Positions 1,432 through 31,810 of a stretch of 34,171 bases of DNA are shown here, one piece after another. This DNA is from PVC group bacterium (GTDB lineage: Bacteria > Auribacterota > Erginobacteria > Erginobacterales > Erginobacteraceae). The position numbers and the translations under genes were made by a program. Each line of letters opens with the position of its first letter. The first letter of the stretch is position 1. The stretch is taken from contig JAZDIV010000001.1 of NCBI GenBank assembly GCA_043804695.1, forward strand, positions 1 through 34,171. The letters run 5' to 3'. The notes beneath the pieces are model-generated. The model saw only the letters and a program-made list of their open reading frames with translations. It was not told where the DNA came from and made no database searches.

Positions 1432-1490
1432 AAGAATTGGTACCCGTTTACACTTTTTAAATATATAATTTTTGCGGAGCAAAAAATTAT

Positions 1491-2693
1491 ATGCGGGAAC
1501 GTTTTACAGAACGGCTGGTCAAGCGGCTTGATCACCTCGACCGCCGGGAGGTTGGTGAATACCTGATCGGGCTGGCCCGGGATAAGGGGCTGCTGGAAAA
1601 CATCTTCGACAGCATGCAGGAGGGCCTCCTGGTCATCAACCCGTCCCGCGCGATCGCGCTCATCAACGCCCCGGCGGCCCGGCTGCTCGATATCCCGGTC
1701 GATTCGGCGGGATACGCGTATGACGAGCGCCTCCGCGACCCGGGACTCCGGACAATCATCGATCAGGGCTTCGAAGTGCCGTCGCAGGCGCTGATCCGGG
1801 AGTGCATCATCATCCACCCCCAGCCGCGGTGGATCCGCCTCAGCCGGACCTCGCTGCGGGACACGGATGGACGTTTCCGGGGGATCTTGCTGGTGCTGGC
1901 CGACATCACCCGCCAGCGGAAGGTCGAGGAGGAGATCAGCCTGGTGGAGAGGCTGGACTTCCTCAGCCATCTCACCGCCGGGGTCGCCCATGAGATCGGA
2001 AACCCGATCAGCTCGCTGGCCATCCAGGTCCAGCTGATCGAACGGCAGGTCCGGGAACTGGGCCCTCCCCTGCGGGACAGACTTCTGAAAACGATCTCGA
2101 TCATCAAGGAAGAGCTGCGGCGTCTCGATCTGATCGTCGACCAGTTTCTCAAGACCCTCCGCCCCGGCACGCTGCAGTTCCGCGAGACCGATCTGGTCGG
2201 AGTGGTGGAAGAAGTCCTGGCCCTGATCGGAGGGGAGCTGGAAGAGAAGGGGATCTCGCTGAAGAAACTCTATCCCCGATCAGGCATCCGGGGGAGGATG
2301 GATAAGAATCTGATCCAGCAGGCGATCTTGAACCTGATCATCAATGCCGCCCAGGCCATGCCGAAGGGGGGAGAGATCGCCCTCCGGCTGGAGAAAAAGG
2401 ACGCGTATCTCAAGTTCTCGATCACCGATCAGGGGACGGGCATCCCTCGGGGAAAAATCAACCGGCTCTTTGAACCGCTCTTCACAACCAAGGAGACCGG
2501 ATCCGGACTGGGGCTGCTGGTGGTGTACAAGGCGATCCGCCAGCACGGCGGGTACGTGGAAGCCGCCAGCCAACCGGGGGAGGGGACCACCTTCACGATC
2601 TGGCTTCCCCAGCGGCCGGACAGAATAAAACTACTGCCGGCGGGCAGGGCGAATTTTAGAGATGAAGTCAGTCATCCTGATAGTCGAAGATGA
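1491..2693 (+). CDS. Cytoplasmic PAS-domain sensor histidine kinase (NtrB/AtoS-like)
   Basis: H-box AGVAHEIGNP, N-box QAILNLIINAAQA, G boxes DQGTGI, FEPLFTTK and GSGLGL; no transmembrane segment. Confidence 0.9.
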   Translation: MRERFTERLVKRLDHLDRREVGEYLIGLARDKGLLENIFDSMQEGLLVINPSRAIALINAPAARLLDIPVDSAGYAYDERLRDPGLRTIIDQGFEVPSQALIRECIIIHPQPRWIRLSRTSLRDTDGRFRGILLVLADITRQRKVEEEISLVERLDFLSHLTAGVAHEIGNPISSLAIQVQLIERQVRELGPPLRDRLLKTISIIKEELRRLDLIVDQFLKTLRPGTLQFRETDLVGVVEEVLALIGGELEEKGISLKKLYPRSGIRGRMDKNLIQQAILNLIINAAQAMPKGGEIALRLEKKDAYLKFSITDQGTGIPRGKINRLFEPLFTTKETGSGLGLLVVYKAIRQHGGYVEAASQPGEGTTFTIWLPQRPDRIKLLPAGRANFRDEVSHPDSRR

Positions 2694-4116
2694 GAAGAAC
2701 GCCCGGGAAGGCCTCCGGGAGGCCATCCGTTCGCCGTTCCACACGGTCCTGACGGCGGAGAACGGTTTCCAGGCCGAGGAGATCATCCGGAATAAAGCCG
2801 TCGACCTGATCATCTCGGACTTGAAGATGCCGGGGATGACCGGCCTGGAGCTTTTGAAAAAAGTCCAGGCGTTTTCCCCGGCCACCATCTTCATCATCAT
2901 GACCGCCTACGGGTCGGTCGATAACGCGGTCGAGGCCATTAAAAAGGGGGCCTACGATTACCTCACCAAGCCGATCAACCTGGACCAGATGGAGCTGCTG
3001 ATTGCCCGGGCGCTGAAAGAAAGGGCGCTGGAGGCCGAGAACGTTTACCTGAAGGAACAGCTGCAGAAGCACTACGGCCTGGAAAATATGGCCGGCCACA
3101 GCCGGGCCATGGAAAGGGTCTTCGAGACGATCCGGCAGATCGGCCCCAGCAACGCCACCGTTCTGATCACCGGCGAGTCCGGGACCGGGAAGGAACTGGT
3201 CGCCCGGGCCATCCACCACCAGAGCCACCGGAAAAATAATCCTTTTATTCCCATTCACTGCGCGTCGCTCTCCCCATCATTGCTGGAGAGCGAACTGTTC
3301 GGGCACGAGCGGGGCGCTTTTACCGGGGCGGTGCTCCAGAAAAAAGGAAAATTTGAAATCGCCGACGGCGGCACCGTCTTCCTGGACGAGATCAGAGAGA
3401 TCCCCCCGGAGATGCAGGTGAAGCTCCTTCGTTTTCTGGAGATGAGGGAGCTCGAAAGTTTCGGGGGAACGGCGACGATCGCGGTGGATATCCGGCTTCT
3501 GGCGGCTTCCAACGTCAATCCGGAAGAGCTCGTTCGAGAACGCCGGCTTCGGGAGGACCTCTACTACCGTCTCAACGTGGTGAGAATCGATCTGCCCCCC
3601 CTGCGCGAGCGGCGGGAGGATATCCCGCTCCTCGTTCACGACTTTATCAGTGAATTCAATCAGACCAACCGCCAGGAGGTCTCCTCGATCACTCCCCGGG
3701 CTCTGCAGGTGCTCCAGGCCTATCACTGGCCGGGCAATGTCCGGGAGCTGAAAAATTGCATGGAGAGCATGATGGCGCTGACCAAGAAGAGCGTCCTGGG
3801 AGTTGATGACATCCCCTCCCCGATTAAATCCGAAAGACCGGCGAAGCTCCCTCCCGGCGCCGACCTGCAGATCAAGACAGCGGAGAAGGAACTCATCCGA
3901 AGCGCCCTCGACCGGGCGGGCGGCAACAAGCAAAAAGCGGCCGGCCTCCTCGGCATCAGCCGGCGCACCCTCTACCGGAAGATGGAGGAGTACGGGCTGA
4001 AGGATAAAGGGAGTACGAAGACAGGCGACCAGGAGATCAGGGGATCAGCAGGAAGGATATCAGCAGATCAGGAGATCAGGGAGGCCCCGGCCGCCCCTGA
4101 TGACCTGGTTCCCTGA
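2662..4116 (+). CDS. Sigma-54-dependent response regulator (NtrC/AtoC family)
   Basis: Receiver domain (IVEDE, DLKMPGMTG), Walker A GESGTGKE, GAFTGA loop, WPGNVREL, Fis-type HTH (AAGLLGISRRTLYRKM). Confidence 0.95.
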   Translation: MKSVILIVEDEKNAREGLREAIRSPFHTVLTAENGFQAEEIIRNKAVDLIISDLKMPGMTGLELLKKVQAFSPATIFIIMTAYGSVDNAVEAIKKGAYDYLTKPINLDQMELLIARALKERALEAENVYLKEQLQKHYGLENMAGHSRAMERVFETIRQIGPSNATVLITGESGTGKELVARAIHHQSHRKNNPFIPIHCASLSPSLLESELFGHERGAFTGAVLQKKGKFEIADGGTVFLDEIREIPPEMQVKLLRFLEMRELESFGGTATIAVDIRLLAASNVNPEELVRERRLREDLYYRLNVVRIDLPPLRERREDIPLLVHDFISEFNQTNRQEVSSITPRALQVLQAYHWPGNVRELKNCMESMMALTKKSVLGVDDIPSPIKSERPAKLPPGADLQIKTAEKELIRSALDRAGGNKQKAAGLLGISRRTLYRKMEEYGLKDKGSTKTGDQEIRGSAGRISADQEIREAPAAPDDLVP

Positions 4117-4152
4117 TATTCCCCCCGCTGATACACTGATAACCTGATATCC
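4027..4152. repeat. ATCAGG/CCTGAT 8-nt-period foldback element, copy 1 (overlaps the 3' end of the regulator gene)
   Basis: Run of (G/T)ATCAG units followed by a run of CTGAT units; clear inverted homolog at 18544-18674. Confidence 0.85.
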
Positions 4153-4197
4153 TTTTTAAACAAAGCATCCATCATCTATCCGGATTAAGTGATCACC

Positions 4198-4638
4198 ATG
4201 AGTCAAACAACAACAATTTCCTATCGCGTTCCCTACGCGGACACCGATCAGATGGGTGTCGTCTACTACGCCAACTACCTGGTTTATTTCGAACGGCTGC
4301 GGAACGAACTGCTCCGGCAGACCGGCACCCCCTACCGGGCGTGGGAAGAGAAGGGGGTGATGCTGCCGGTGGTGGAGGCATGCTGCCGGTACCGGGCTCC
4401 GGCTCATTATGACGACCTGTTGACCATCTCCGGCCGGATAAGCCGGAGCAGGGGCAGCCGGCTCCGAATCGAGTATGAAGTTCGAACGGGGGGTGCCATC
4501 CTGGCCGACGGCTACACCGTTCACGCCTGCCTGAAACGGTCCGGGCGCCCCACGCGGATCCCGGCAGAACTGACCGTCGAATCGACGGATGCAGGAGAAG
4601 CGGGCGCTCCGGGAAGGAAAAAGGATGACCGCCCCTGA
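4198..4638 (+). CDS. Acyl-CoA thioesterase, YbgC/FadM (4HBT) family
   Basis: RVPYADTDQMGVVYYANYLVYFE hot-dog fold motif and YRAPAHYDD. Confidence 0.9.
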   Translation: MSQTTTISYRVPYADTDQMGVVYYANYLVYFERLRNELLRQTGTPYRAWEEKGVMLPVVEACCRYRAPAHYDDLLTISGRISRSRGSRLRIEYEVRTGGAILADGYTVHACLKRSGRPTRIPAELTVESTDAGEAGAPGRKKDDRP

Positions 4639-6424
4639 AAAAATCAGGTCCCGTCCCCCCCTGGCGACCGTCGGGCTCATCCTCCTCTGCTTTCTCTATC
4701 TCACCTTCGCCTGGGATCACTTCTGGAACACGAACGAGTACAGCCGGATTTTCCTGACCCGGGCCCTGATTGATCATCAGAGCTTATCCATCGATAAAAT
4801 CATCGTTGGACACGACACCCAGGACAAATCATACTTCCGGGGGCGGTTTTATTCCAACAAGGCCCCGATTTCCTCATTCCTGGCCGCGCCCGGTTACCTG
4901 GCGGTGCGTCTGACCGAGATCTATTCCGGCATTTCGATCGGGGAGGAGATGACCCTCTATCTGATCAGATCACTCACGATCAGCATCCCCTCGGCGCTCT
5001 TCCTTCTGCTCCTCTTCAAGTTCTGGTCTTCGATCACCCTCCACTATTCGATCCGGCGGGCGGTTTTGATCGCGTATTCCCTGGGGACCATGGTCTGGCC
5101 GTACTCCAGCATGTACTACGGCCATATCCTGGCCGCCATGAGCCTCTGCCTGGCTTTCCTGATTATTTTCAGCGCCAAAGAGACCGCTGCCGGATCCAGG
5201 GCGCTCTTTGAATGCGGCTTCTTCTGCGGACTCGCTTTCGCGATCGAGTATCCGACCGCGCTGATCTCGATCTGCCTGTTCATGTATGCGGCCGCGGTTG
5301 GTAAAAAACTCCGCGCCGCGGTCTACCTGCTCCTGGGGGCCGTCTTGATTGGAGTCCTCTGGTCCCTCTTCGATCCTATCCAGGCCGCCATCGGCCCCCA
5401 TGTAAAATCATTGATCGACCCCCATCAGGCGGTAATGATCGTGTCCGTCATCGTCACCGCGGTGATTGGCCTGGCGGCCATCTCACGGGCCCCGAGCCTG
5501 CTGTTCTTTTTCGCCGGGGCCGCCCCGCTGGTGGGCGCCACCTTCTATTACCACTGGAAATGCTTCGGGGGACCGCTCCAGTTTCCCTACTATCATGAAT
5601 CCTACCGGCAGTTCGCCGTCGCTCACCGGGAAGGGATTGCCGGGGTGTCCTTTCCCGCCGGCGGGCGCGAACTGAGCGAGCGCCTAACTGTTCTCCTGAA
5701 GCTGTTGATCAGCCCCTACCGCGGTCTCTTTTTCTATTCCCCCTTCCTCCTGCTCGGGGTAAGCGGAATGATCAAAATGGTCCGGGACGCGGAATGGAAA
5801 CTGGAAGGCCGGCTCTTCCTGGCCATCGCCGTCGTCTATCTGTTGTTCCTGTGCTCCTTCACCGACTGGGAAGGCGGCTGGTCGATGGGGCCCCGGCACC
5901 TGGTGCCCCTCCTGCCGTTTCTGGCCACCGCCGTCGTCTATCAGCTGGGAACGGTCGATAGAAAACTCCGGAGAGTTCTGGTCTGTTTGATGGCAGTCCT
6001 GGGCCTGATCTCGATCGCCTTTATCTTTATCGGGACCGCTTCTTTTCCCTACCTGCCCAAGGAGTTCAACAATCCCCTCTACGATCTTTCCTGGCAGCTG
6101 CTGGCCGGGGGCAAGATCGCCCCCACCCTGGGCGAGTTGTGCGGCCTTAAGGGGGGGGTGGGCCTCGTTCCCCTGGTTGTCCTGGTGGGGATATTGACGG
6201 CCATCTTTCTCAGCGATCTGAGCCGATTCGCCTGGCGGGGGGCGGCGATCCGGATCATATTTATGCTCTTGAGCGCGGCGACGGCCGCGGCCGTCCTGCT
6301 CGCCTGGGGAGCGGGAAGCCGGTTGCGGGTGGGGCGGTTATCTCCTTACCAGCGGGCGCTGGAGGGAACGCAGAAAGAGCGGGTGATCGCCTTCATGGAG
6401 CGGACAAAAGGGGAGGGGCAATAA
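4625..6424 (+). CDS. Polytopic membrane protein, probable GT-C-type (lipid-linked sugar) glycosyltransferase
   Basis: Many hydrophobic helices; motifs YSNKAP, GLFFYSP and WEGGWSMGPRHLVPLLPFL resemble PMT-like membrane glycosyltransferases. Function is inferred. Confidence 0.55.
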   Translation: MTAPEKIRSRPPLATVGLILLCFLYLTFAWDHFWNTNEYSRIFLTRALIDHQSLSIDKIIVGHDTQDKSYFRGRFYSNKAPISSFLAAPGYLAVRLTEIYSGISIGEEMTLYLIRSLTISIPSALFLLLLFKFWSSITLHYSIRRAVLIAYSLGTMVWPYSSMYYGHILAAMSLCLAFLIIFSAKETAAGSRALFECGFFCGLAFAIEYPTALISICLFMYAAAVGKKLRAAVYLLLGAVLIGVLWSLFDPIQAAIGPHVKSLIDPHQAVMIVSVIVTAVIGLAAISRAPSLLFFFAGAAPLVGATFYYHWKCFGGPLQFPYYHESYRQFAVAHREGIAGVSFPAGGRELSERLTVLLKLLISPYRGLFFYSPFLLLGVSGMIKMVRDAEWKLEGRLFLAIAVVYLLFLCSFTDWEGGWSMGPRHLVPLLPFLATAVVYQLGTVDRKLRRVLVCLMAVLGLISIAFIFIGTASFPYLPKEFNNPLYDLSWQLLAGGKIAPTLGELCGLKGGVGLVPLVVLVGILTAIFLSDLSRFAWRGAAIRIIFMLLSAATAAAVLLAWGAGSRLRVGRLSPYQRALEGTQKERVIAFMERTKGEGQ

Positions 6425-6480
6425 AATCCGAAACCCGAATAACGGAATCCTGATTTCGAAAATAAACAACAAATTAAAAT
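6424..6480. repeat. Degenerate 7-nt-period tract (AAATCCG AAACCCG AATAACG GAATCCT ...)
   Basis: Heptad periodicity similar to the left arms at 11746-11767 and 23884-23925. Confidence 0.55.
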
Positions 6481-6502
6481 TTTTCCTCAGGAAAAATTTT
6501 AA
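6474..6502. terminator. Perfect 13-bp AT-rich hairpin between convergent genes
   Basis: TTAAAATTTTTCC-TCA-GGAAAAATTTTAA overlapping the stop codon of the minus-strand gene; terminator role is inferred from position. Confidence 0.5.
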
Positions 6503-7176
6503 AAGGAGTACTCCAGGCCGGCCCGGATCTGCCAGTTGTCAAGTTCGGCATCGTCTTTCACGGTAATCGACCCTTTCTCCGGGTTGGAGTGGGTCTGTTC
6601 GCGGTCAATATCGGTGAAGACGTAACGGGCCTCCACGTTCAGGAATATGTGTTTGCTGAGCGTGAAATCAGCTCCCACCGCGGCATGAACCGACCACTGC
6701 CCCGTTACTTCTCCGGTAATGGTGAACGGATAGGTTTTGCCGTCGACAACGACATTGTAACTGCCGTCGATGTCCGAATCAATCTGGTAATAGCCGCCCC
6801 CCAGCCCCAGGTAGGCCCGGGCGCTCTGCTCCATGATGGGGGCGAAGATCATCGCGGTCAGATAGATCGGATAGACCCGGTCCACTTCTTTATACGTAAC
6901 CGGACCCGGGTGGTCCGAGTAGGGCATCACGATATCCCCTTCATCGAGACTCCAGCGAAAGTAATCAACCCCCATCTCGATCCCCAGCATATCGGTAAAT
7001 TTATACTTGGCAATGGCCCCGTAACCGAATTCATGCGCGAAATCCGAGTCCTTCGGGTTGATGTAAATCCCATGAGCGCCTAACCGCAGTTCCCCGTATT
7101 TCAGTTCTCCGGCACTCTCCCCGGCGACCAAACAGAAAAGGAGCAAGGCCGCCCCGATCAAGGTGACCGTTCTCAT
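6499..7176 (-). CDS. Outer-membrane beta-barrel protein (OmpW/OmpA-like)
   Basis: Signal peptide MRTVTLIGAALLLFCLVAGESA, amphipathic strands (YLGLGGGYY, FLNVEARYVF), C-terminal GLEYSF; AAGAGG RBS upstream. Confidence 0.8.
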   Translation of the reverse strand: MRTVTLIGAALLLFCLVAGESAGELKYGELRLGAHGIYINPKDSDFAHEFGYGAIAKYKFTDMLGIEMGVDYFRWSLDEGDIVMPYSDHPGPVTYKEVDRVYPIYLTAMIFAPIMEQSARAYLGLGGGYYQIDSDIDGSYNVVVDGKTYPFTITGEVTGQWSVHAAVGADFTLSKHIFLNVEARYVFTDIDREQTHSNPEKGSITVKDDAELDNWQIRAGLEYSF

Positions 7177-7369
7177 ATGATTTCCTCTTACTTGCTCTGA
7201 CGTTGAAATATCGTGATAAAGGGCCGGCAACAGGCTTTTTTTAATACGACCGAGCGCCGGTATTTGTTCAGTCTAAGTATAAACGTCCCGGAACGCCTGT
7301 AAAGCGAAATAAAACTTTTTCCCGTTCTGGTTCCGCCTCTTCCCGGAAGTGGTACTTTCTGATTTTCAC

Positions 7370-7399
7370 TTGCTTCCGGCCGTTCCCAATTGCTATAGT
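7370..7399 (+). promoter_or_regulatory. Putative sigma-70 promoter for the tRNA-Pro/hom unit
   Basis: TTGCTT-N18-TATAGT with an extended -10 TG at 7391-7392. Confidence 0.55.
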
Positions 7400-7485
7400 C
7401 CACTCTTCAGATTGGGGGGAGTGGGCGATCAGGGTAATGCCGGTGTCCCTTGGCCCTTGCCTATTATCCCATAGATCTGTCTTTT

Positions 7486-7541
7486 CGGGGCGTGGCGCAG
7501 TCCGGCTTAGCGCGTCCCGAAAGCTTTCGGGAAGGTCCCGG
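7486..7541 (+). pseudogene. tRNA-Pro 5' fragment with the anticodon arm replaced by a palindrome
   Basis: 7486-7514 matches tRNA 7601-7629 at 28/29; TCCCGAAAGCTTTCGGGA follows, then AGGTCCC(GG) as in the tRNA; no T arm or 3' acceptor strand. Confidence 0.85.
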
Positions 7542-7600
7542 GAAATGTTTTATATGAATTAAAAAGGGAAAAGAGTAAGAAGATCATTGATTACATGGTT

Positions 7601-7676: not shown

Positions 7677-7764
7677 CTAATAAAGAGCATCGGCTAAAAA
7701 ATGGGGAGTTCTGCGCCGGAGGCGCTAAGTCCTGATAATTGGTAATTTTTGCGGAGCAAAAATT

Positions 7765-9057
7765 ATGAAACAGATCAACATCGGCCTGATCGGCTGGGGA
7801 ACTGTCGGGACCGGGGTGATCAAGCTCCTCCGCGCCAACGCGTCCCTCATCTCCCGCCGCCTGGGGGGGGCCCGGCTTTGCATTTCCCGGATAGCCGACC
7901 TCGACCTGAAAAAGAAACGGGGGGTAGCCGTTCCGGCAAAGATGCTGACCCGGGAGGCTTCCCGGATTATCGAGGACCCGGCCATCCGGATAGTTGCCGA
8001 ATTGACGGGGAGTATCGAGCCGGCTGGAGAGCTGATCCGGGAGGCCCTCCGGAAAGGAAAGCAGGTGGTGACGGCCAACAAGGCATTGCTGGCCGAAAAG
8101 GGGAAAGACCTGTTCAGGGAAGCCCGCCAGAACAACCGCCGGATTTACTATGAAGCGAGCGTCGGCGGCGGCATCCCGATCATCAAAATTCTGCGAGAGG
8201 GGCTGGCGGCCAATAACATCCGATCCGTCCTGGGAATCATCAACGGCACCACCAACTATATTCTCTCCCGGATGACGGAGGAGGGGATGGCGTTCTCCGC
8301 CGCCCTCGCCGAGGCCCGGAAAAACGGATACGCCGAAAAGGACCCTTCCCTCGATCTGGAGGGGGTTGACTCGGCTCACAAGCTGGTGCTGCTGGCCTCC
8401 CTGGCGTTCGGAGGATGGGCCGACCTGAAAAAGATCTTCGTTGAGGGGATTACAGACATAACGGCTGAAGATATCGCCTCTACCGCGGGGTTGGGCTACA
8501 CGGTCAAGCTTCTGGCTATCGCCAAGCAGACATCGGCAGGCGCCGACATCCGGGTGCACCCCACCCTGATCAAACACCACCACCTCCTGTCCTCGGTCAA
8601 CGGGGTCTTCAACGCCATCTATGTCGAAGGCGATTACAGCGACCGCCAGATCTATCAGGGCAAAGGAGCAGGCGAAGGGCCGTCCGCCAGCGCGGTGGCG
8701 GCGGACCTGATTGAGGCGGGAAGAGAGATCCTGTCCGGACCGACCGTTGACCCGGATTTCATCGCCGGGGATGGCGACCTGGAGCTGGCTCCGATAGGAA
8801 AGGTTGAATGCCGCCATTACATCAGAATCCCGGCCGTCGACCGGCCGGGTGTCCTGGCGAAGATATCGAATATCCTCGGATCGGGGGGGATCAGCATCGC
8901 CTCGGTGATTCAGCGGGAGCGAAGGAAAAGCGGGGTTGTCCCGGTCATTTTGATGACCCACAAGGCCGGGGAGCAGGCTCTGGCCCGGGCCGTGGCCCGG
9001 ATCAGCCGGATGGCGGCGGTCAGGGGCCGCCCGCTCCGGATCCGGGTGGAGGATTGA
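7765..9057 (+). CDS. hom: Homoserine dehydrogenase with C-terminal ACT domain
   Basis: GWGTVGTG, VVTANKALLA, YEASVGGGIPII, GIINGTTNYIL and DRPGVLAKI. Confidence 0.97.
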   Translation: MKQINIGLIGWGTVGTGVIKLLRANASLISRRLGGARLCISRIADLDLKKKRGVAVPAKMLTREASRIIEDPAIRIVAELTGSIEPAGELIREALRKGKQVVTANKALLAEKGKDLFREARQNNRRIYYEASVGGGIPIIKILREGLAANNIRSVLGIINGTTNYILSRMTEEGMAFSAALAEARKNGYAEKDPSLDLEGVDSAHKLVLLASLAFGGWADLKKIFVEGITDITAEDIASTAGLGYTVKLLAIAKQTSAGADIRVHPTLIKHHHLLSSVNGVFNAIYVEGDYSDRQIYQGKGAGEGPSASAVAADLIEAGREILSGPTVDPDFIAGDGDLELAPIGKVECRHYIRIPAVDRPGVLAKISNILGSGGISIASVIQRERRKSGVVPVILMTHKAGEQALARAVARISRMAAVRGRPLRIRVED

Positions 9058-9070
9058 GCGGAATGATCCC

Positions 9071-10288: not shown

Positions 10289-10410
10289 CCCGATCTGACG
10301 ACAGATTAATCATCCCCCTGGACAGGAGCACGGCAACCCGGAAGAATTTATTCCGGTTGCGCTGTTGAGAGGAAAAATAAAACTAAAATTTTTCGGAGAA
10401 AAATTTTAAG

Positions 10411-11634
10411 ATGAACATCATCGTTCAGAAATACGGCGGGACATCGGTCGCCGACACCGCGCGGATTAACAACGTCGCCCGGCGGGTCTGCCGTTCAAAA
10501 TTGCCGGGACACGGTCTGGTGGTCGTGGTTTCGGCGATGGGGGACACGACCGACGACCTGATCCGGCAGGCTGAAGAGATACACCCCTCGCCCCCGGAAC
10601 GGGAGCTTGATCAGCTGATCTCCACCGGAGAGCAGATCTCCGCGGCGCTGCTCGCAATGGCGATTCAGCACGCCGGACACCGGGCCGTCTCCCTGACCGG
10701 GAACCAGGTGGGGATCCTGACGGACGACAGCCACACCAAAGCCCGGATCTTCAAGATCGATCCTCAAAAAATGCTGGAACTGCTGGAAGACGGCACGATC
10801 GTGGTGGTGGCCGGTTTCCAGGGGATCAACCTGAAGAAAGACGTCACCACTCTGGGGCGGGGCGGTTCCGATACCACGGCGGTCGCGCTGGCCGCGGTCC
10901 TGAAGGCCGAGCTCTGCGAAATCTACACCGATGTCGACGGGGTCTATACCGCCGATCCCCGGGTGGTGCCTCAAGCGGCCAAGATCAGCCAGATCAGCTA
11001 TGACGAGATGCTGGAACTGGCCAGCCTGGGAGCGAAGGTGCTCCAGAACCGGGCCGTGGAGTTCGCGAAAAAGTTTAACGTCGCCCTCCGGGTCCGGTCC
11101 AGTTTTACTGAAGATGAAGGAACACTTGTCACCGAGGAGGCAGATACCATGTCGATGGAGAAGGTCGTCATCAGGGGGGTAACCCTCAACCAGGAGGAGG
11201 CGAAGTTAACGATCACCCTGGTCCAGGATACCCCGGGGATCGCTGCCCGGATCTTCAAGAGCATCGCCGAAGCGAATATCAATGTTGACATGATCATCCA
11301 GAATGTCAGCGCGAAAGGATTTACCGACGTCTCGTTCACCATCCCCCGGCCGGATCTCGCGAAAACCAGGAAGCTCCTGGAAAAGATCTCGCTCGAGATT
11401 CGGGCCGGGGAGGTCACCGTGGAAGAAAAAATCGCCAAGGTCTCGGTCGTCGGTGTGGGGATGAAAAGTCACCCCGGGGTCGCGGCCATCATGTTCGAAG
11501 CACTGGCCGGGGAAGGGATCAACATCATGATGATCAGCACCTCCGAGATCAAGATTTCCTGCGTGGTGCGGGAGGAAGACGGCGAGAAGGCGGCGCGGGC
11601 TATTCATACGGCGTTTGGATTAGATCAGGAGTAG
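10411..11634 (+). CDS. lysC: Aspartate kinase
   Basis: [45 protein letters not shown] and two ACT domains. Confidence 0.97.
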
Positions 11635-11659: not shown

Positions 11660-11723
11660 CTCGTTCCCACGCTCCGCGTGGGAACGTAAGGCTAAGCGTT
11701 ACCACGCGGAGCGTGGTAACGAG
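11660..11723. repeat. REP-like inverted doublet
   Basis: CTCGTTCCCACGC-TCC-GCGTGGGAACG followed by the inverted partner CGTTACCACGC-GGA-GCGTGGTAACGAG; each half is itself a hairpin. Confidence 0.85.
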
Positions 11724-13944: not shown

Positions 13945-16593
13945 ATGACACCTGAAAATAATCCTATCTCCGCCTGGCCGACCCGCTATGACCCGAAACG
14001 GGTGGAAAGTTCAATCTACCGGCTCTGGCAGGAGAACGGCTGCTTCATGGCTTCCCCCGGCGGCGCCGATCCGTATGTCATTGTCATCCCGCCGCCCAAC
14101 ATCACGGGAATCCTGACCATGGGACATGTCCTGAACAACACCCTCCAGGATATCCTTGTCCGCTGGCAGAGGATGCGGGGGCGGGAAACGCTCTGGCTCC
14201 CCGGCACCGACCATGCGGGGATCGCCACCCAGAACGTAGTGGAGAAGAAGCTGGAGGAAGAGGGGATCACCCGGGAAGGGCTGGGCCGGAAGCAGTTCGT
14301 GCGGCGGGTGTGGGAATGGAAAAAGCAGTACGGCGGGACGATCATAAAACAGTTAAAGGAACTGGGCTGTTCCTGCGACTGGTCGCGGGAGCGTTTTACC
14401 CTCGACCCCGGCCTCTCCCGGGCGGTGAGAGAGGTCTTCATTACGCTCTACCGGAAAGGACTGATCTACCGGGGGCCCTACCTGATCAACTGGTGTCCGC
14501 GCTGCCACACGGCCCTCTCCGACGAAGAGGTCGAGCATGACGAGAAAAGCGGATCTCTCTGGCACATCCGCTATCCTCTCCGGGACGGCGGCGGCTGGAT
14601 CACGGTCGCGACGACGCGCCCGGAGACCATGCTGGGGGACACCGCGGTGGCGGTCCATCCCGATGACCGCCGGTTCCGTTCCCTGATCGGGAAGACGGTT
14701 GTCCTTCCCTTCGTCCGGCGCGAGATCCCGGTTATCGCCGATGAGTTTGTCGACCCGAGTTTCGGGACCGGGGCGGTCAAGGTCACCCCGGCCCATGATC
14801 CCAATGACTTCGCGCTCGGACGCCGCCACGGCCTCCCCGAGGTGGTGGTGATGAACACCTCGGCCAGGATGAACGAGAAGGCGGGACCGGATTTTAACGG
14901 GATGGACCGGTTTGAATGCCGCCAGAAGCTGGTGATCATGCTGAAGGAACTGGACCTGCTGGAGAAGGTCGAGGAACATGCCCACGCCGTCGGGGAATGT
15001 TACCGGTGTCGGACCGTCATTGAGCCGTATCTTTCCGTCCAGTGGTTCGTCCGCATGAAACCCCTGGCGGAACCGGCTCTCCGGGCGGTCCGGGAAGGCG
15101 CCGTGACCTTCTACCCCGAGCGCTGGGTGAAAGTCTACGAGCACTGGATGGAGAACATCCGCGATTGGTGCATCAGCCGGCAATTGTGGTGGGGGCACCG
15201 GATCCCCGCCTGGTACCGCAAAGACGAGATTTACGTCGGCGAGGCCCCTCCCGGGGGAGAAGGATGGGTGCAGGACGAAGACGTTCTCGACACCTGGTTC
15301 TCCTCCTGGCTCTGGCCCTTCTCCACGCTCGGCTGGCCCGATCCGACTCCCGATCTGAAGGCCTTTTATCCCACCTCCGTCCTGGTCACGGGCCCCGACA
15401 TCATCTTTTTCTGGGTGGCCCGGATGATCATGGCGGGCCTGGAATTCCGGGGCGAAGTTCCTTTCCGCCAGGTCTTCTTCACCGGGATCATCCGGGACAT
15501 GGACGGGCGGAAGATGAGCAAATCCCTGGGCAATTCCCCGGACCCGCTCGACGTGATCGGGGAATACGGGGCAGACGCCCTCCGCTTCACCATCGCCCGG
15601 CTCTCCCCGATCGGGCAGGACGTCCACTACTCGAACTCCCTGTGCGAGCTGGGAAGAAACTTCGCCAACAAGATCTGGAACGCCGCCCGGTTCGTGGCGG
15701 CGGGGATAGAGGGCCGGAAGGTCCTCGACCCGCGCCGGCACCTCTCTCTGCTCTCCCTGGATGACCGGTACATCCTCGACCGCCTGCAGCGGACGATCGA
15801 GGAATGCGGGGACGCCCTGAGCCGGTTTCACTTCAACGAGGCCGCGCTCGGCCTCCATGATTTTTTCTGGAGCCATTTCTGCGACCGCTACCTGGAAAGC
15901 GCCAAATCCTTACTCGGGGGGGAGGACGGCGACCGGCCGGCGGTCGTCCGGGGGGTGCTCCTCGAATCGCTCACCGTTTCCCTGCGGCTCCTTCACCCGT
16001 TCATGCCTTTCATCACCGAGAGGATCTGGCAGTTGCTCGGGAAGGAATCGCTCCTGATCCGGTCTCCCTGGCCCCGGGCGAAGAAAGAACTGTGCTTCCC
16101 GGAAGCCAGGGATCCGGCCGGGCTGAAATACGATCTGATCAGCGCCGCCCGCAACCTGCGGAAAGACTATGAACTGCCCGCCTCGCGGCAGGTGTCGTTC
16201 ATCATCGTTCCCCGGGAGAACTCTCTCCCGGGGATCCTGGCCGGGGAGGCGGAGAACATGGGGGCGCTGATTAAAAATTGCCGTGTTTCCATCGAACCCC
16301 GTTATCAGTCGCCCCGGACCGTGCCTTCAACCATGGTCGGGGGATGGGGGATCTACATGCCTCTCGAGGGAGTGATCGACCTTGACGCGGAGCGGGAACG
16401 ATTCGGGAAGAAGCTGGCCCGGGCCGGGGAGGCGCTGGAGCGGGTCCAGGCGCGGCTCCGGAACCCTGATTTCCTCTCCCGGGCACCGGAGGAGATCAAA
16501 AAGAAGAATCGGGATCAGCTGGAGGAGCTGACCCGGGAAGTCGCGTCCCTGAAGAAGATACTCTCCACTCTTATTTTTCCGGAGGAAAAATAA
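13945..16593 (+). CDS. valS: Valine--tRNA ligase
   Basis: PPPNITGILTMGH, GTDHAGIATQ, ATTRPETMLGD, DWCISRQLWWGH, KMSKS and C-terminal coiled coil. Confidence 0.98.
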   Translation: MTPENNPISAWPTRYDPKRVESSIYRLWQENGCFMASPGGADPYVIVIPPPNITGILTMGHVLNNTLQDILVRWQRMRGRETLWLPGTDHAGIATQNVVEKKLEEEGITREGLGRKQFVRRVWEWKKQYGGTIIKQLKELGCSCDWSRERFTLDPGLSRAVREVFITLYRKGLIYRGPYLINWCPRCHTALSDEEVEHDEKSGSLWHIRYPLRDGGGWITVATTRPETMLGDTAVAVHPDDRRFRSLIGKTVVLPFVRREIPVIADEFVDPSFGTGAVKVTPAHDPNDFALGRRHGLPEVVVMNTSARMNEKAGPDFNGMDRFECRQKLVIMLKELDLLEKVEEHAHAVGECYRCRTVIEPYLSVQWFVRMKPLAEPALRAVREGAVTFYPERWVKVYEHWMENIRDWCISRQLWWGHRIPAWYRKDEIYVGEAPPGGEGWVQDEDVLDTWFSSWLWPFSTLGWPDPTPDLKAFYPTSVLVTGPDIIFFWVARMIMAGLEFRGEVPFRQVFFTGIIRDMDGRKMSKSLGNSPDPLDVIGEYGADALRFTIARLSPIGQDVHYSNSLCELGRNFANKIWNAARFVAAGIEGRKVLDPRRHLSLLSLDDRYILDRLQRTIEECGDALSRFHFNEAALGLHDFFWSHFCDRYLESAKSLLGGEDGDRPAVVRGVLLESLTVSLRLLHPFMPFITERIWQLLGKESLLIRSPWPRAKKELCFPEARDPAGLKYDLISAARNLRKDYELPASRQVSFIIVPRENSLPGILAGEAENMGALIKNCRVSIEPRYQSPRTVPSTMVGGWGIYMPLEGVIDLDAERERFGKKLARAGEALERVQARLRNPDFLSRAPEEIKKKNRDQLEELTREVASLKKILSTLIFPEEK

Positions 16594-16708
16594 GAGAAGG
16601 ACCAACTTGTGTTATCCATAACGTGCAGTTGAAGTGGAATATGTTGGTTGTGGTGAGGAATACTTCTTACGATGTCGCCTCCAGGATTCAGCTTTTGTTT
16701 AAACAACA

Positions 16709-16761
16709 GACCCGACGAAGTCGGGTCCCCTATTAAGTAGCGCCGAAGGCGCTAATTAATA
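16709..16761. repeat. Two tandem C-GAA-G triloop hairpins ahead of nadC
   Basis: GACCCGAC-GAA-GTCGGGTC (16709-16727) and TATTAAGTAGCGCC-GAA-GGCGCTAATTAATA (16731-16761). Confidence 0.85.
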
Positions 16762-23249: not shown

Positions 23250-23263
23250 CGGTCTCATTTATT

Positions 23264-24119: not shown

Positions 24120-24131
24120 TTAATTTATAAT

Positions 24132-26783: not shown

Positions 26784-26821
26784 TTTGCCTGCCTGACTAT
26801 AATTTTCCGAAGGTAAATTAT

Positions 26822-27160
26822 ATGATTGACGACTACCGTTTCGGCCGGATGATAATTGACGGCAGGACCTACGCTTCGGATGTAATCATCTTTCCTGACC
26901 GGGTTCAGGGGTCATGGTGGAGGAAGAACGGACATTCGCTCTGCCGGGAGGATATCGAGGACGTTCTTCGAGCAAAGCCGGAGGTGCTGGTGGTCGGGAC
27001 CGGGGCCGGGGGGGTGATGAAGATCCCCCCCGCCGTCGCGGAGAGGATAAGGGCAGAGGGGATTGAACTGATCGCCCGGGAAACGGCGTCCGCCTGCCGG
27101 ACATACAATTCCCTCCTCGGGAAAAGGACGGTAATAGGCGCCTTTCACCTGACGTGTTAG
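26822..27160 (+). CDS. Mth938-like domain protein (DUF498)
   Basis: IDDYRFG..IIDG, PEVLVVGTG, ACRTYN and GAFHLTC. Confidence 0.88.
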   Translation: MIDDYRFGRMIIDGRTYASDVIIFPDRVQGSWWRKNGHSLCREDIEDVLRAKPEVLVVGTGAGGVMKIPPAVAERIRAEGIELIARETASACRTYNSLLGKRTVIGAFHLTC

Positions 27161-27197
27161 GACAATCACGCTCCCGGCGTGGTCAGGCGGCCGCGAA

Positions 27198-28142: not shown

Positions 28143-28162
28143 TACAATCAACAGAAAGTATA

Positions 28163-29158
28163 GTGAATAACCAGTCGAAAAGCAAACCGATAGTTTCCCG
28201 GGATCCTCTGGTCACGATTATTATCGCGTTCCGTCATCCCGGAGAATATGTACGGGAAAGCCTGGAGAAGATCGGGGAACTCGATTACCGGAATTTCGAG
28301 GTGATCCTTCTTCCCGACGAACACATGGAAGAGATCGGGCCGGAAATAACAATCATCCCCACCGGCCCGGTCGGGCCGCCCCGGAAGAGAGACATCGGGG
28401 CGGAACAGGCCCGGGGGGAGATACTCGCTTTTATCGATGACGACGCGCATCCCCTGCCGGACTGGCTGAAGAGGGCGGTTCCCCTGTTCAGTGACGACTC
28501 GATCGCGGCGGTCGGGGGGCCGGCCATGACCCCGCCGGAAGATGACCTCTCCCGGCAGGCAGGAGGACGTGTTCTCTCCTCCTTTATGGTGGGCGGGTTC
28601 CATAGCTTTCGAAGCGTACCGGACAAAAAGAGACTGGTGGATGATTACCCGACCAGCAATCTCCTGGTCCGTAAAACGGCGTTCATGCGGGTGGGCGGAT
28701 TCAACTCCCCCTACTGGCCGGGGGAGGACACGGTTCTCTGCTGGAAACTGACCCACGAGGCCGGGATGAAAATACTGTATGATCCCGACGTGCGGGTCTG
28801 GCACCATCGCCGCCCGCTCTTTAAAAAACACTGGAACCAACTCGGCAATTACGGGCTCCACCGGGGTTATTTCGCCAGGAAATTCCCCCGGACGTCCCGG
28901 CGGTTCACTTATTTTCTTCCCTCCCTCTGGACGGCTTTCCTGTTCCTGGGCTGGCTGCCCCTGCTGTTCATCCCCGGCGGAATCTTCCTCTATGCCGCCG
29001 CGGTTCTTTTATATTTCCTGGCAGCACTGGTTACCGGGGTGAGCAGCCGGAATCTCAAAATGACTTTCATGGTCGCGGCCGGTATCGTCACCACGCATGT
29101 TGTCTATGGCCTTAACTTCATGCGCGGGCTGCTGATTAAACAACTGCCGGAAGAATAA
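28163..29158 (+). CDS. GT2 glycosyltransferase with C-terminal TM helices
   Basis: KRDIGAEQARGEILAFIDDDA, GGF and GEDT; hydrophobic C-terminus. GTG start is uncertain. Confidence 0.85.
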   Translation: MNNQSKSKPIVSRDPLVTIIIAFRHPGEYVRESLEKIGELDYRNFEVILLPDEHMEEIGPEITIIPTGPVGPPRKRDIGAEQARGEILAFIDDDAHPLPDWLKRAVPLFSDDSIAAVGGPAMTPPEDDLSRQAGGRVLSSFMVGGFHSFRSVPDKKRLVDDYPTSNLLVRKTAFMRVGGFNSPYWPGEDTVLCWKLTHEAGMKILYDPDVRVWHHRRPLFKKHWNQLGNYGLHRGYFARKFPRTSRRFTYFLPSLWTAFLFLGWLPLLFIPGGIFLYAAAVLLYFLAALVTGVSSRNLKMTFMVAAGIVTTHVVYGLNFMRGLLIKQLPEE

Positions 29159-29161
29159 AAG

Positions 29162-29563
29162 TTAATACCCCTCTACTCTTAAACCCTGAATTCGTTGAAA
29201 ATGTGTTATATCCCGGGTAATCAAAGGCAACCCATGCATCTTTGCGGTAACTCCTATTAAAAGATCCATAGTTGGTATCGAGATTCCCTTTTTTCGCAAG
29301 GTCGATTCCGCCTCTCCATAGCTGGCCGCAAAGGAATAATCCGGGTAGACGACAGTTAGCAGTTTAAACAGGCTATTAACTCGCTGTAATTCCCGCCGAG
29401 GATTAGTGGACAAACGGGCTCCTGTCTGAAGTTCACCAAGAGCGAAAACAGACGAAAAAAGTTCAACTCCGGCGAGTGTTTCCAGCTTTTGGACTGCTGG
29501 TCCTCTTTTATCTCTTTTTTGTTCCCGCAATAAATCAATCCAGAAAGAAGTATCGAGAAACAT
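29162..29563 (-). CDS. vapC: VapC PIN-domain toxin
   Basis: FLDTSFWIDLLR, conserved E (ELQTG), DLLIGVTA and LITRD..HF.RI.GL. Confidence 0.9.
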   Translation of the reverse strand: MFLDTSFWIDLLREQKRDKRGPAVQKLETLAGVELFSSVFALGELQTGARLSTNPRRELQRVNSLFKLLTVVYPDYSFAASYGEAESTLRKKGISIPTMDLLIGVTAKMHGLPLITRDITHFQRIQGLRVEGY

Positions 29564-29569
29564 GATATT

Positions 29570-29812
29570 TTACTCCTTTCCAATTACCGGAGAGTTCGCC
29601 ATTGATTCCTTTCGAGCTCGGATTATTTCTTCGGTTTTATCAAGAGTACTGTCGGATAATGTAATCTTATCGAGATTACGCAACAGATTATCAGCGGTAT
29701 GAACCGGTTTGAGTCGTCTTTTGATAACCTTGCTGAATGATTCATTTTCCCTTTTCTCCGAGGCCAGTAGATTATAAGCCTCCATGTCGATTGTAATAGT
29801 CTTAACCGCCAT
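29570..29812 (-). CDS. vapB: VapB-type antitoxin (DUF217-like)
   Basis: KTITIDMEAYNLL..EKRENESFSKVIKR; upstream of the PIN gene; AAGGAGGT RBS. Confidence 0.85.
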   Translation of the reverse strand: MAVKTITIDMEAYNLLASEKRENESFSKVIKRRLKPVHTADNLLRNLDKITLSDSTLDKTEEIIRARKESMANSPVIGKE

Positions 29813-29875
29813 AATACACCTCCTTGAATTCCTGATTATAAAGTAGCGCCGAAGGCGCTACTTTAAACACACTTA

Positions 29876-29903
29876 ACATGCACTTATATTGAGTGTATGT
29901 CAA
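29876..29903 (-). promoter_or_regulatory. vapBC promoter -35 with overlapping palindromic operator candidate
   Basis: TTGACA on the minus strand (29903-29898) overlaps ACATGCACTTA-TAT-TGAGTGTATGT. Confidence 0.55.
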
Positions 29904-29958
29904 TACGAAAAACAGGGAAAATATTTCAATCTGTATTTCTTCCGGTTATGCTAAACTC

Positions 29959-30005
29959 TATTTTTCTCTCCGCCCCGATCTTTAATCGGGGCGGAGAGAA
30001 AAATA
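29959..30005. repeat. Perfect 21-bp inverted repeat
   Basis: TATTTTTCTCTCCGCCCCGAT-CTTTA-ATCGGGGCGGAGAGAAAAATA. Confidence 0.9.
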
Positions 30006-30088
30006 ACAATTTACCGTTCTGGAATTTTTAGACTGAGTCTCTTGTCCGCCTCCGGAGAAGATGCGTCTCTGGCACACAATAAAGTGTC

Positions 30089-30152
30089 TGTGGGAGGGGT
30101 TTTCAACCCCGATTCTATCCAGCCTGGATCGGGGTTGGAAACCCTTCCCACA
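30089..30152. repeat. GTGG-family REP doublet
   Basis: TGTGGGAGGGGTTTTCAACCCCGA ... TCGGGGTTGGAAACCCTTCCCACA. Confidence 0.8.
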
Positions 30153-30205
30153 ATGGATCTATTGAAACTCCGAAGCAACAAGTTAATTTTTACGCAGCAA
30201 AAATT

Positions 30206-31810
30206 ATGAAGATATTATTTTCATATCCTCCCCTGGATACCTCAAAAGGTTTTCCCACCCTGGGGCAGAACCGGCAGTTCCAGTACTTCTCCGAGCCGAC
30301 ATTCATCTATCCGGTCGTCCCCGCCATTGCCGCCACCGGACTCCGCGACGCAGGCCACGAGGTTCTCTGGAATGATTGTCTTGCCGAAGGTATCTGCCGG
30401 GAAGAGTACTTCAAGTTGCTCGAGCGCGAAAAACCCGATCTTATCATCTTCGAAACCAAAACCCCGGTCATCAAGGAGCACTGGCAGCTGATTGATGAGA
30501 TCAAACGCCTACCGTTTACCGCTCACCGCTCACCGCTTACCGTCCTCCTCGGCGATCACGTCACCGCTTTACCGGAAGAATCCATGCAGAACTCACAGGT
30601 TGACTTCGTTCTCACCGGCGGCGACTACGACTTCCTCCTGCGCAATTTGTGTGAGAGCCTTGAGCCGGAAAATCCCCCCTTCGACTCCGCTCCCTTCGAC
30701 TTCGCTCAGGGTCTGCGACAGGATCTTCGACAATCCCCAATACTTCGGCAAGCTCAGCACATGTTCCCCAATACTTCGGCAAGCTCAGCACATGTTCCCC
30801 AATCCCTGGAACCGGGAATCTGGTATCGTGAAAGCGGCACAATTAAAACCACCGGTTCCTTTAAACTTGACCATGACCTCGATCAGGCTCCTTCCATCGA
30901 CCGGCAACTGACCAAATGGGAACTTTATGCTTATAAGAACGGGAACTACCGGCAGACACCGGGCACCTATATCATGAGCGGGCGGGACTGCTGGTGGGGG
31001 AAGTGCACCTTCTGCAGCTGGCCCCAGCTCTATCCCAAATTCCGGGTTCGATCGGTCAATAATGTGCTCGATGAGATCGGGATGATTATTAAAAAGTATC
31101 CGGTCCGCGAGATCATGGACGATACCGGAACCTTCCCCCGGGGGGAATGGCTGAGAAGCTTCTGCCGGGGCGTCATTCAGCGGGGTTATCACCATAAGAT
31201 TGGTTTTGACTGTAATTTTAGATTCGGAGCCGCTGACTTTGATGATTACCGGCTGATGAAACAGGCCGGGCTCCGCTTCCTCCTCTTCGGACTGGAGAGC
31301 GGCAACCAGGAGACACTGGATCGCCTGAACAAGAACCTGCGGGTCGAAACCATTATCGAGTCCTGCCGGATGGCCAGAAAAGCGGGTCTCTTCCCGCATA
31401 TCACCATCATGTTCGGCTATCCCTGGGAGAACTATGAGCAGGCCCGCAACACGCTCAAGCTGGGGAAGTATCTCCTGAAAAAAGGCTATGCCTACACCAT
31501 GCAGGCCACCGTCGTGGTTCCGTACCCCCGAACCCCCCTCTATGAAGAATGCCTGGAGAAGGACTGGCTGCTGACCTCCGACTGGGCTGATTTCGATATG
31601 AAACAACCGGTCATGAAGACTCCCTTTCCGGAGAAAGATCTGATGAAACTAGTCCAGGGGATGTACTCGATAGCCTATGATCCCGTATTCCTGGCCAGGA
31701 AAATGCTGAGCATCAGGGACTGGGCTGACATTCAATTCTTCCTCCGGGCCGGGAAAAAAGTCTTTGGCCATATCCGTGATTTCAAATCGGAAGAGAACCG
31801 GAAAGACTGA
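30206..31810 (+). CDS. B12-binding-type radical SAM protein carrying in-frame repeat insertions
   Basis: N-terminal B12-binding-like region (KPDLI, LLGDHVTALPEE), GRDCWWGKCTFC (CX4CX2C), RSVNNVLDEI, FGLESGNQETL and FGYPWE. Confidence 0.85.
   Translation: MKILFSYPPLDTSKGFPTLGQNRQFQYFSEPTFIYPVVPAIAATGLRDAGHEVLWNDCLAEGICREEYFKLLEREKPDLIIFETKTPVIKEHWQLIDEIKRLPFTAHRSPLTVLLGDHVTALPEESMQNSQVDFVLTGGDYDFLLRNLCESLEPENPPFDSAPFDFAQGLRQDLRQSPILRQAQHMFPNTSASSAHVPQSLEPGIWYRESGTIKTTGSFKLDHDLDQAPSIDRQLTKWELYAYKNGNYRQTPGTYIMSGRDCWWGKCTFCSWPQLYPKFRVRSVNNVLDEIGMIIKKYPVREIMDDTGTFPRGEWLRSFCRGVIQRGYHHKIGFDCNFRFGAADFDDYRLMKQAGLRFLLFGLESGNQETLDRLNKNLRVETIIESCRMARKAGLFPHITIMFGYPWENYEQARNTLKLGKYLLKKGYAYTMQATVVVPYPRTPLYEECLEKDWLLTSDWADFDMKQPVMKTPFPEKDLMKLVQGMYSIAYDPVFLARKMLSIRDWADIQFFLRAGKKVFGHIRDFKSEENRKD

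Follow-up and report, generated by a model that had tools for sequence, protein, structure and literature searches.

A+T-rich palindromic repeats with C-GNA-G triloops lie flush with gene starts, stop codons and stable RNA ends in a bacterium of the Auribacterota

We analysed a 34,171-nt window from a PVC group bacterium of the Auribacterota (assembly GCA_043804695.1, contig JAZDIV010000001.1, positions 1 to 34,171 of the forward strand), for which a preliminary description had reported short hairpins with C-GNA-G triloops at the start codons of six unrelated genes. All six sequences are present where they were reported and the genes that follow them are indeed unrelated: according to Pfam they encode a PAS histidine kinase, homoserine dehydrogenase (hom), aspartokinase (lysC), QRPTase (nadC), a DUF498 protein and a B12-binding radical SAM protein. 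At four sites the A of the ATG lies within the stem (1491, 7765, 26822 and 30206) and the other two stems stop 2 nt short of the ATG (ATGs at 10411 and 16764), again as described. The hairpins are listed below with the energies of their RNA folds at 37 °C.

1463..1492, plus strand: palindrome with a GGA loop at the start of the PAS histidine kinase gene, with the A and T of the ATG at 1491 in the stem; −7.8 kcal/mol
7743..7765, plus strand: palindrome TAATTTTTGC-GGA-GCAAAAATTA at the start of hom, the final A of which is the A of the ATG; −10.3 kcal/mol, z −4.95
10384..10408, plus strand: consensus copy TAAAATTTTTC-GGA-GAAAAATTTTA ending 2 nt before the ATG of lysC; −6.2 kcal/mol
16731..16761, plus strand: palindrome with a GAA loop, an A+T-rich outer stem and a G+C core, ending 2 nt before the ATG of nadC; −15.0 kcal/mol
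26798..26822, plus strand: imperfect palindrome with a GAA loop at the start of the DUF498 gene, 14 nt past the upstream stop codon; −4.5 kcal/mol
30184..30206, plus strand: imperfect palindrome with a GCA loop at the start of the radical SAM gene; −1.5 kcal/mol

The arms had been said to differ between the copies while staying complementary. Complementarity was observed, but three of the six stems are imperfect (a bulged A at 1463, a T-T mismatch at 26798 and an A-C mismatch beside the closing pair at 30184) and the arms track a consensus rather than vary freely. The folds at 26798 (z −0.66) and 30184 (z +0.19) are no better than those of shuffled sequence. With at most one mismatch the pattern WWTTTTNCGNAGNAAAAWW has 8 matches in the window compared to 0.03 expected, and none of 100 shuffles reached 8.

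The exact pattern occurs 204 times in the whole assembly (G000; 2.97 Mb in 155 contigs, 57.8% G+C, 88% complete), compared to 0 occurrences for a reversed-pattern control. C-GNA-G or its complement was found in 327 of the 664 perfect triloop hairpins with a stem of at least 8 bp, and a C-GNA-G or C-TNC-G triloop in 181 of the 345 perfect A+T-rich hairpins with any loop of 3–7 nt. Allowing up to one mismatch there are 461 C-GNA-G hairpins in the genome, of which 242 have A+T-rich stems. A logo of 324 copies yields the consensus T-W4-T5-(Y)C-GNA-G(R)-A5-W4-A. The palindromes are 23–31 bp long, some variants have a G+C inner stem, and the arms fall into the subfamilies TAAAATTTTTC, TATTATTTTTTC, TCTTATTTTTCC and, with a G+C core, TAAATTAGCGCC. 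Of 378 copies, 31 have the tetranucleotide GTAG in the left arm and none has it in the right; it is confined to the G+C-core subfamily, whereas the A+T-rich majority is untagged. The six hairpins are members of a genome-wide A+T-rich palindromic repeat family and chance is excluded.

We placed the hairpins relative to 2088 crude gene calls, made with a codon-bias caller and longest-open-reading-frame starts. The 3′ ends of the hairpins peak at −2..+2 of the starts with 143 hairpins; the background across −30..+70 is 1–16 per position, with one position at 21 and a secondary hump of 11–16 at +12..+18. The strand is strongly biased in this peak, as 101 of the 143 hairpins carry C-GNA-G and only 5 carry C-TNC-G (p = 3e-24). 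A flush hairpin is found at the start of 162 of the 2088 genes (7.8%). Among the 242 A+T-rich C-GNA-G hairpins, 87 end within −6..+5 of a start in sense orientation compared to 7 in antisense, and where a transfer RNA (tRNA) gene comes next downstream the ratio is 11 sense to 0 antisense. The GGA loop is found in 61 of the 87 start-abutting copies but in 55 of the 155 others (p = 3e-7); the remaining 26 start-abutting loops are GAA, GCA or GTA. The GGAG of the loop lies 10–13 nt before the ATG, whereas the GGAG of other genes peaks at 6–8 nt, a spacing that looks tolerated rather than designed. This clear excess in distance and strand bears out the earlier suggestion of a genome-wide oriented signal at gene starts. 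The signal is enriched at start codons and not specific to them: it was also observed on stop codons, in opposite orientation, and at the ends of tRNA, transfer-messenger RNA (tmRNA) and signal recognition particle (SRP) RNA genes.

The 5′ ends of the hairpins peak at −5..+3 of the end of the stop codon (162 hairpins). Here the loops are C-TNC-G in 50 cases compared to C-GNA-G in 7 (p = 4e-9), spread over TGC (18), TCC (16) and TTC (13), and many of these stop-flush copies provide the stop codon themselves. There are 37 tRNA and tmRNA genes; a hairpin 3′ end abuts the 5′ end (−3..+4) of 19 of them, and a hairpin 5′ end meets the 3′ end (−3..+6) of 23. The tmRNA has an abutting hairpin at its 5′ end as well. 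The large (Bacillus-type) SRP RNA, for which the full Rfam model was matched at C49:9721-10005, starts 0 nt after the palindrome TATTTTATTTC-GAA-GAAATAAAATA. The RNase P RNA is present and has no flush palindrome, with a degenerate copy ending ∼25 nt upstream, and 6S RNA had no match in the genome. The placement is thus mirrored between starts and stops and between the two ends of RNA genes, so that the G-N-A strand runs into the gene from either side. Overall, flush hairpins are found at about 8% of both starts and stops and at about half of the tRNA genes. At many tRNA 3′ ends we also encountered, at 0–2 nt, hairpins composed of an A-tract, a G+C stem and a T-tract, which are classical two-way terminators; other tRNA 3′ ends have antisense A+T-rich palindromes, so that tRNA genes are flanked by a hairpin at each end.

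The palindrome forms the end module of mosaic repeat cassettes. Many copies are near-identical and share 40–60 nt of flank. Taking the palindrome as the head, the tail-side flank is repeated in 156 of 378 copies and the head-side flank in 31; GTAG occurs within 8 nt of the tail-side flank in 3 of the 378 copies and CGTC within that flank also in 3. At stop codons whole cassettes are inverted, with the palindrome against the gene. Neighbouring copies within 200 nt of each other are arranged tail-to-tail in 25 cases, directly in 15 and head-to-head in 4. Only 3 of the 378 copies lie deep in coding sequence, and 17 overlap the 3′ ends of open reading frames (ORFs). By spacer type, the counts are 10 for the 248 convergent, 65 for the 247 divergent and 246 for the 1541 co-directional spacers; the last of these comprise 151 copies in sense and 95 in antisense orientation to the downstream gene. 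A start-flush and a stop-flush hairpin share one spacer in 13 cases, compared to ∼13 expected. A two-ended (MITE/REPIN-like) element filling whole spacers was rejected, as this co-occurrence is at chance rate.

We compared the copy number across genomes. The exact pattern has 204 copies in G000, 168 in G001 of the same genus and 164 in G003, but only 0–35 (35, 32, 30, 6, 1 and 0) in the six other members of the family and 0–15 in each of 22 searched genomes from elsewhere in the order and phylum, and the reversed-pattern control gives 0–1 throughout. Expansion of the palindrome is limited to this bacterial family. Both the start peak and the stop peak reappear in 800 kb of G001, where the loop polarity is 13 to 0 for the former and 5 to 2 for the latter. 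Orthologs were scored in the same 800 kb for 168 pairs with an identical start residue, after 46 differing pairs had been dropped. A flush hairpin is present in G001 at 7 of the 20 genes with a hairpin in G000 compared to 7 of the 148 others (odds ratio 10.8, p = 2e-4), so that at 13 of 20 genes it is unshared within the genus. Among the window sites those of the kinase and nadC are kept, the former with altered arm bases, the latter, which has GTAG in its left arm, with one compensatory double change; a second such change was observed at C117. The hom palindrome is missing at the same-genus ortholog, and more distant orthologs have, as judged by eye, other GNA-loop palindromes or none. The lysC ortholog of G001 has an ordinary GGAG leader in place of the palindrome. 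Much of the covariation between copies noted in the preliminary description is therefore repeat-family structure, namely subfamily consensus arms and repeated flanks, with compensatory changes at some orthologs.

For the tRNA leaders we took twenty of the best-scoring listed tRNA genes per genome, picked regardless of hairpins. Among these a hairpin ends at most 4 nt from the tRNA +1 in 8 of 20 genes in G001, 7 of 20 in G003, 7 of 19 in G006 and 1 of 20 in G002. Abutting hairpins are found at the orthologous genes for tRNA-Gly, Cys, Ile, Ala, Phe, Val and His in 2–5 of five genomes representing four genera; G002 shares those of tRNA-Gly and tRNA-Val only. The orthologous leader hairpins differ in their inner stems and loops, which include UUCG and GNRA. 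Retention at ten times the background, together with compensatory change at tRNA leaders, shows that a part of the copies is maintained, be it through selection or through DNA-level homogenisation.

The sequence context of the hairpins also bears on whether they are transcribed. At tRNA-Val a promoter is recognisable in four genera (TTGAAA/TTGTCA, 17 nt, TATAAA/TATATA) and ends 1–3 nt before the hairpin, which would therefore occupy the very beginning of the transcript; if transcription starts at the usual distance of 7 nt, the outermost bases of its left arm may be untranscribed. The tRNA-Ala hairpin follows tRNA-Ile on the same strand after ∼100 nt in which no promoter could be recognised, and is therefore probably inside a longer transcript. 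Roughly 30 of the 125 co-directional hairpin genes have spacers below 60 nt, and in 15 cases the hairpin is the entire intercistronic region of 20–40 nt. From the tRNA-Val promoter, the tRNA-Ala context and the short operon spacers we infer that the hairpins are in RNA in at least many cases. A −35 element at a fixed distance was sought: TTG at spacers of 15–18 nt from the left arm is found in 20 of 177 functional copies, which is near background, and motif profiles anchored on the hairpin base showed no upstream positional peak. The genes for tRNA-Lys, -Arg and -Met (G000–G006), which have no leader hairpin, show CTTGCC/TTGACA, 17 nt and TATAGT/TATATT with leaders of ∼10–20 nt; canonical sigma-70 signals are therefore in use in this lineage.

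Further members of the family and other repeats occur in the window and are given below. Rfam at gathering thresholds matched only a tRNA-Pro in the window.

175..203, plus strand: TAAATTAGCGACC-GAA-GGGCGCTAATTTA with a repeated tail-side module, 45 nt upstream of the ATG at 249
6474..6502, minus strand: perfect 13-bp palindrome TTAAAATTTTTCC-TGA-GGAAAAATTTTAA, the end of which provides the TAA stop of the minus-strand gene 6499..7230
16568..16596, plus strand: perfect 13-bp palindrome CTCTTATTTTTCC-GGA-GGAAAAATAAGAG of the TCTTATTTTTCC subfamily, including the stop codon (16591-16593) of the upstream 882-aa ORF
16709..16727, plus strand: G+C hairpin GACCCGAC-GAA-GTCGGGTC, the tail-side module of the nadC cassette, which also precedes the palindrome in a 32-member flank cluster
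29837..29867, plus strand: GTAG-bearing TATAAAGTAGCGCC-GAA-GGCGCTACTTTAAA in the long spacer ahead of the radical SAM gene
29959..30005, plus strand: perfect 21-bp palindrome with the loop CTTTA, an A+T-rich outer and a G+C inner stem, in the radical SAM spacer
31852-31882: perfect 14-bp palindrome with the loop AGC, within the listed 459-aa ORF

The TTG at 31811 listed as the start of the 459-aa ORF is doubtful: the last of these palindromes falls within the ORF, whose first in-frame ATG is at 31910. Just after lysC (11662-11721) there are two 11-bp G+C hairpins, CGTTCCCACGC-TCC-GCGTGGGAACG and CGTTACCACGC-GGA-GCGTGGTAACG, which are 10 nt apart and inverted tail-to-tail; this doublet is REPIN-like and belongs to another repeat family, likewise with a C-GNA-G loop. 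Elsewhere in the genome the TCTTATTTTTCC-GGA-GGAAAAATAAGA subfamily (∼25 copies, for example C46:10373 and C48:41512 of G000) is preceded by a conserved module in which GG-N10-GC (cGGttcaatgcTTGCA) resembles a sigma-54 −24/−12 promoter. Often ttattgaaattccgaagca follows, a motif that also occurs at 30160-30180 of the window. A second palindrome family, TAACCCGATTTA-TGAA/TTCA-TAAATCGGGTTA, is found on stop codons in either loop orientation (for example C122:18644 and C114:39524). Often (g)ttttgaacaatg comes next; its reverse complement, cattgttcaaaac, is a motif that occurs on the tail side of start-flush palindromes.

The reading that we favour, and to which we give about an even chance, is that these are co-opted selfish polar repeats, akin to the repetitive extragenic palindromes (REPs) and BIMEs, that are transcribed as leader and trailer hairpins and of which some copies have been domesticated. 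High copy number, shared flanks, lineage-restricted expansion, genus-level turnover, intergenic location and stop donation all fit such a family, and among the options of the preliminary description the domesticated micro-element is the one that fits best. The palindrome is the head of a cassette and faces genes, its sense strand ending flush with starts and with the 5′ ends of stable RNAs; heads in the opposite orientation have their beginning at tRNA 3′ ends and at or within stop codons. The palindromes would be transcribed with their genes and could fold as leader or trailer hairpins. At starts mainly copies with a GGAG loop would survive, because the loop could serve as a displaced Shine-Dalgarno (SD) sequence and the A-rich right arm as the spacer. 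A copy that enters from the 3′ end of a gene would give a stop codon immediately through its A+T-rich arm. The flush positions would then stem from a selection filter on where repeats are tolerated. Some copies appear to have become fixed with their pairing kept by selection, for example in the tRNA leaders across four genera, and these may plausibly shield or insulate the RNA as 5′-terminal or leader hairpins.

Several observations weigh against this reading. As start-flush and stop-flush hairpins share spacers at the rate expected by chance, the inward polarity does not come from two-ended elements, and the selection filter that would explain it is a proposal only. Moreover, no SD filter accounts for the flush placement at the tRNA +1. 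None of the six Y1_Tnp-like loci in G000, which is 88% complete, has a C-GNA-G hairpin within 600 nt. Matches to PF01797 number 6 in G000, 9 in G001, 20 in G003 and 2–4 in the other genomes; the Y1_Tnp frames of ∼310–360 aa (for example C43:49050 and C114:33349) are longer than typical IS200 transposases. We saw no empty/filled-site pair with clean borders, so that mobility is inferred from copy number, shared flanks and turnover only. A strict count of 81 internal mismatches gave 18 G-U compared to 10 A-C (p = 0.18); the loose version gave 37 to 58, and a terminator control of 5 to 1 has too few cases. RNA-level selection on pairing is thus not demonstrated by the mismatch asymmetry, and the perfect stems of up to 24 bp could reflect DNA-level homogenisation. 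Finally, E. coli RNase P is reported to be slowed ∼10-fold by a stable leader structure beside its site (PMC10731613). Unless the A+T-rich outer stem frays or escapes transcription, conserved leader hairpins would therefore come at a cost.

The precision of ∼5 nt at starts, stops and tRNA ends could also be explained by endogenous, non-mobile RNA hairpins that evolved in place at gene boundaries, with G-N-A in leaders and U-N-C in trailers, and that shield the 5′ end from 5′-end-dependent decay, shield or terminate the 3′ end and present the ribosome-binding site in a standardised way. This is unlikely in our view, although several observations are consistent with it: orthologous tRNA leaders in as many as four genera retain a hairpin while their stems differ, leaders of protein genes show compensatory changes, the tRNA-Val hairpin begins 1–3 nt past a conserved −10 box, and among the loops on the sense strand of tRNA leaders there are UUCG and GNRA tetraloops, a hallmark of RNA. 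However, such hairpins should not occur as near-identical copies with shared flanks of 40–60 nt, nor should their expansion be limited to a few genomes of one family or 13 of 20 be unshared within the genus. The SD in the loop is shifted by 4–5 nt from the usual spacing of the genome, G-U is not in excess, the window includes two hairpins (of the six) that are not stable as RNA, and no known RNA-level reason calls for U-N-C instead of G-N-A in trailers. A further account, which we consider improbable as well, is a genome-wide code of gene-boundary hairpins, in which either a boundary-seeking repeat inserts or grows head-first against starts, stops and RNase P sites, or a host factor reads C-GNA-G hairpins as marks of the beginning and end of functional RNAs. 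On this account the inward polarity would be a primary feature and no by-product. As far as the literature was searched, neither has been described in any bacterium.

The palindrome or an extruded hairpin might instead be a DNA-level signal that is read by RNA polymerase or a DNA-binding protein, be it with TAWAAT in the outer left arm as the −10 and the start in the loop, as an N4-like hairpin promoter, or as a cruciform boundary element. The left arm has T-A/W-W-W-W-T at −13..−8 from the loop centre, which would put a loop purine at +1, and one cassette type has GGTACA, 17 nt and TAAATT aligned to the arm. Both strands retain their pairing and wobble pairs are nearly absent, the depletion in convergent spacers fits a 5′-region element, and the outer left arm at tRNA-Val complements the right arm even though it is probably upstream of the start site. 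Nevertheless we rate a DNA-level signal as quite improbable. No −35 was found at a fixed distance and a G+C hairpin fills the −35 position at hom and nadC; the 50 stop-flush copies aim into the upstream gene and would fire antisense; ∼30 copies lie in operon-internal spacers below 60 nt; and at tRNA-Val a canonical promoter precedes the hairpin. Arms that vary by subfamily and yet stay complementary are a misfit for one sequence-specific dimeric protein. For the N4-like promoter, which had been raised before, the inward polarity at gene ends argues against outward firing and no hairpin-linked promoter geometry was found. The least probable explanation, with a very small chance, is a global translational switch, with the A-U stems as RNA thermometers or the GGA loops as CsrA-type operators. 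A-U-rich stems do extend over the start codon in four of the six window cases, GGA loops are enriched at starts, and −6 to −10 kcal/mol could respond to temperature. But the SD is unpaired in the loop, the same elements are found at tRNA, tmRNA and SRP RNA genes and at stop codons, 26 of the 87 start-abutting loops are not GGA, and no match to the CsrA domain PF02599 was found in the 88%-complete genome. CsrA sites present GGA in a hexaloop, unlike the C-G-closed triloop here. The thermometer raised in the preliminary description in addition does not fit the energies, which span −1.5 to −15 kcal/mol, or the placement before tRNAs. The arm promoter, the thermometer and the CsrA operator are thus each contradicted by at least one test, these being the −35 scans, the stop-flush polarity, the fold energies and the missing PF02599.

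If the favoured reading of co-opted REP/BIME-like repeats is true, small selfish palindromes can occupy the most constrained non-coding sites, directly before starts and RNase P sites and on the stop codon, and are tolerated there because they bring their own ribosome-binding site or stop codon. They would then be a natural system for studying how much structure translation starts and pre-tRNA leaders tolerate, and how repeats rewrite leaders and C-termini and become fixed in gene expression. The flush hairpins are also a practical annotation marker of true starts and RNA gene ends in this candidate phylum; they pointed to the 5′ end of the SRP RNA.

In searches of full-text literature we found no description of palindromic repeats flush with start codons or tRNAs, and the text of one Auribacterota genome paper does not mention palindromes, hairpins, inverted repeats, intergenic regions or promoters. 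The closest known systems are the GTAG- or CGTC-tagged REP/BIME/REPIN elements of Proteobacteria. These are extragenic palindromes of 20–40 bp with hundreds of copies and a lineage-restricted distribution, which combine with other modules into mosaics, are polar, are often transcribed into RNA hairpins and sometimes overlap gene ends. All of this resembles the present family, one subfamily of which has GTAG in one arm (31 of 378 copies). According to Di Nocera et al. 2013 (PMC3733652), REPs are mainly located downstream of genes, between unidirectional and convergent ORFs. The palindromes studied here are in contrast depleted in convergent spacers (10 in 248, compared to 65 in 247 divergent ones), have their main peak at starts and are flush with start codons and tRNA 5′ ends. 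They also differ in that 347 of 378 copies have no GTAG, that the stems are A+T-rich and that a fixed C-GNA-G triloop would double as the SD. The unpaired GTAG or CGTC tag at one end, which is among the defining features of REPs, is absent from most copies. RAYT-mobilised REPINs flank a Y1-transposase gene, and no such gene flanked by the palindromes was found (0 of 6 in the 88%-complete G000). Inverted doublets are frequent among REPINs; neighbouring copies here are 25 tail-to-tail, 15 direct and 4 head-to-head, with start/stop co-occurrence at chance.

The Correia elements of Neisseria (CREE/NEMIS) and the BOX elements of Streptococcus are likewise small non-coding repeats near starts and in leaders, form RNA hairpins, can alter the expression of the neighbouring gene and, in the case of BOX, are modular. 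However, they are at least 100–150 bp long with distinct terminal repeats or modules, are not start-flush and have no SD in the loop; we know of no description of mirror placement at stops or tRNA ends for them. C-GNA-G triloops form very stable DNA mini-hairpins of the d(GCGAAGC) type and are the promoter signal of the phage N4 virion RNA polymerase. As in the N4 promoters, the G-N-A triloop here is closed by C-G, strand-specific and near the start of a transcription unit. The N4 promoters have conserved stems of 5–7 bp and need the phage polymerase, whereas the stems here are variable with 8–24 bp, hundreds of them are located in a bacterial chromosome, they point inward at gene ends and some are operon-internal. 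With fourU and ROSE thermometers and translational-coupling hairpins the family shares A-U-rich stems over the start region, and where the hairpin is the only intercistronic sequence it would be melted by a terminating ribosome, as coupling hairpins are. Thermometers pair the SD, whereas the palindromes described here present it in the loop and occur at tRNAs, other stable RNAs and stop codons as well.

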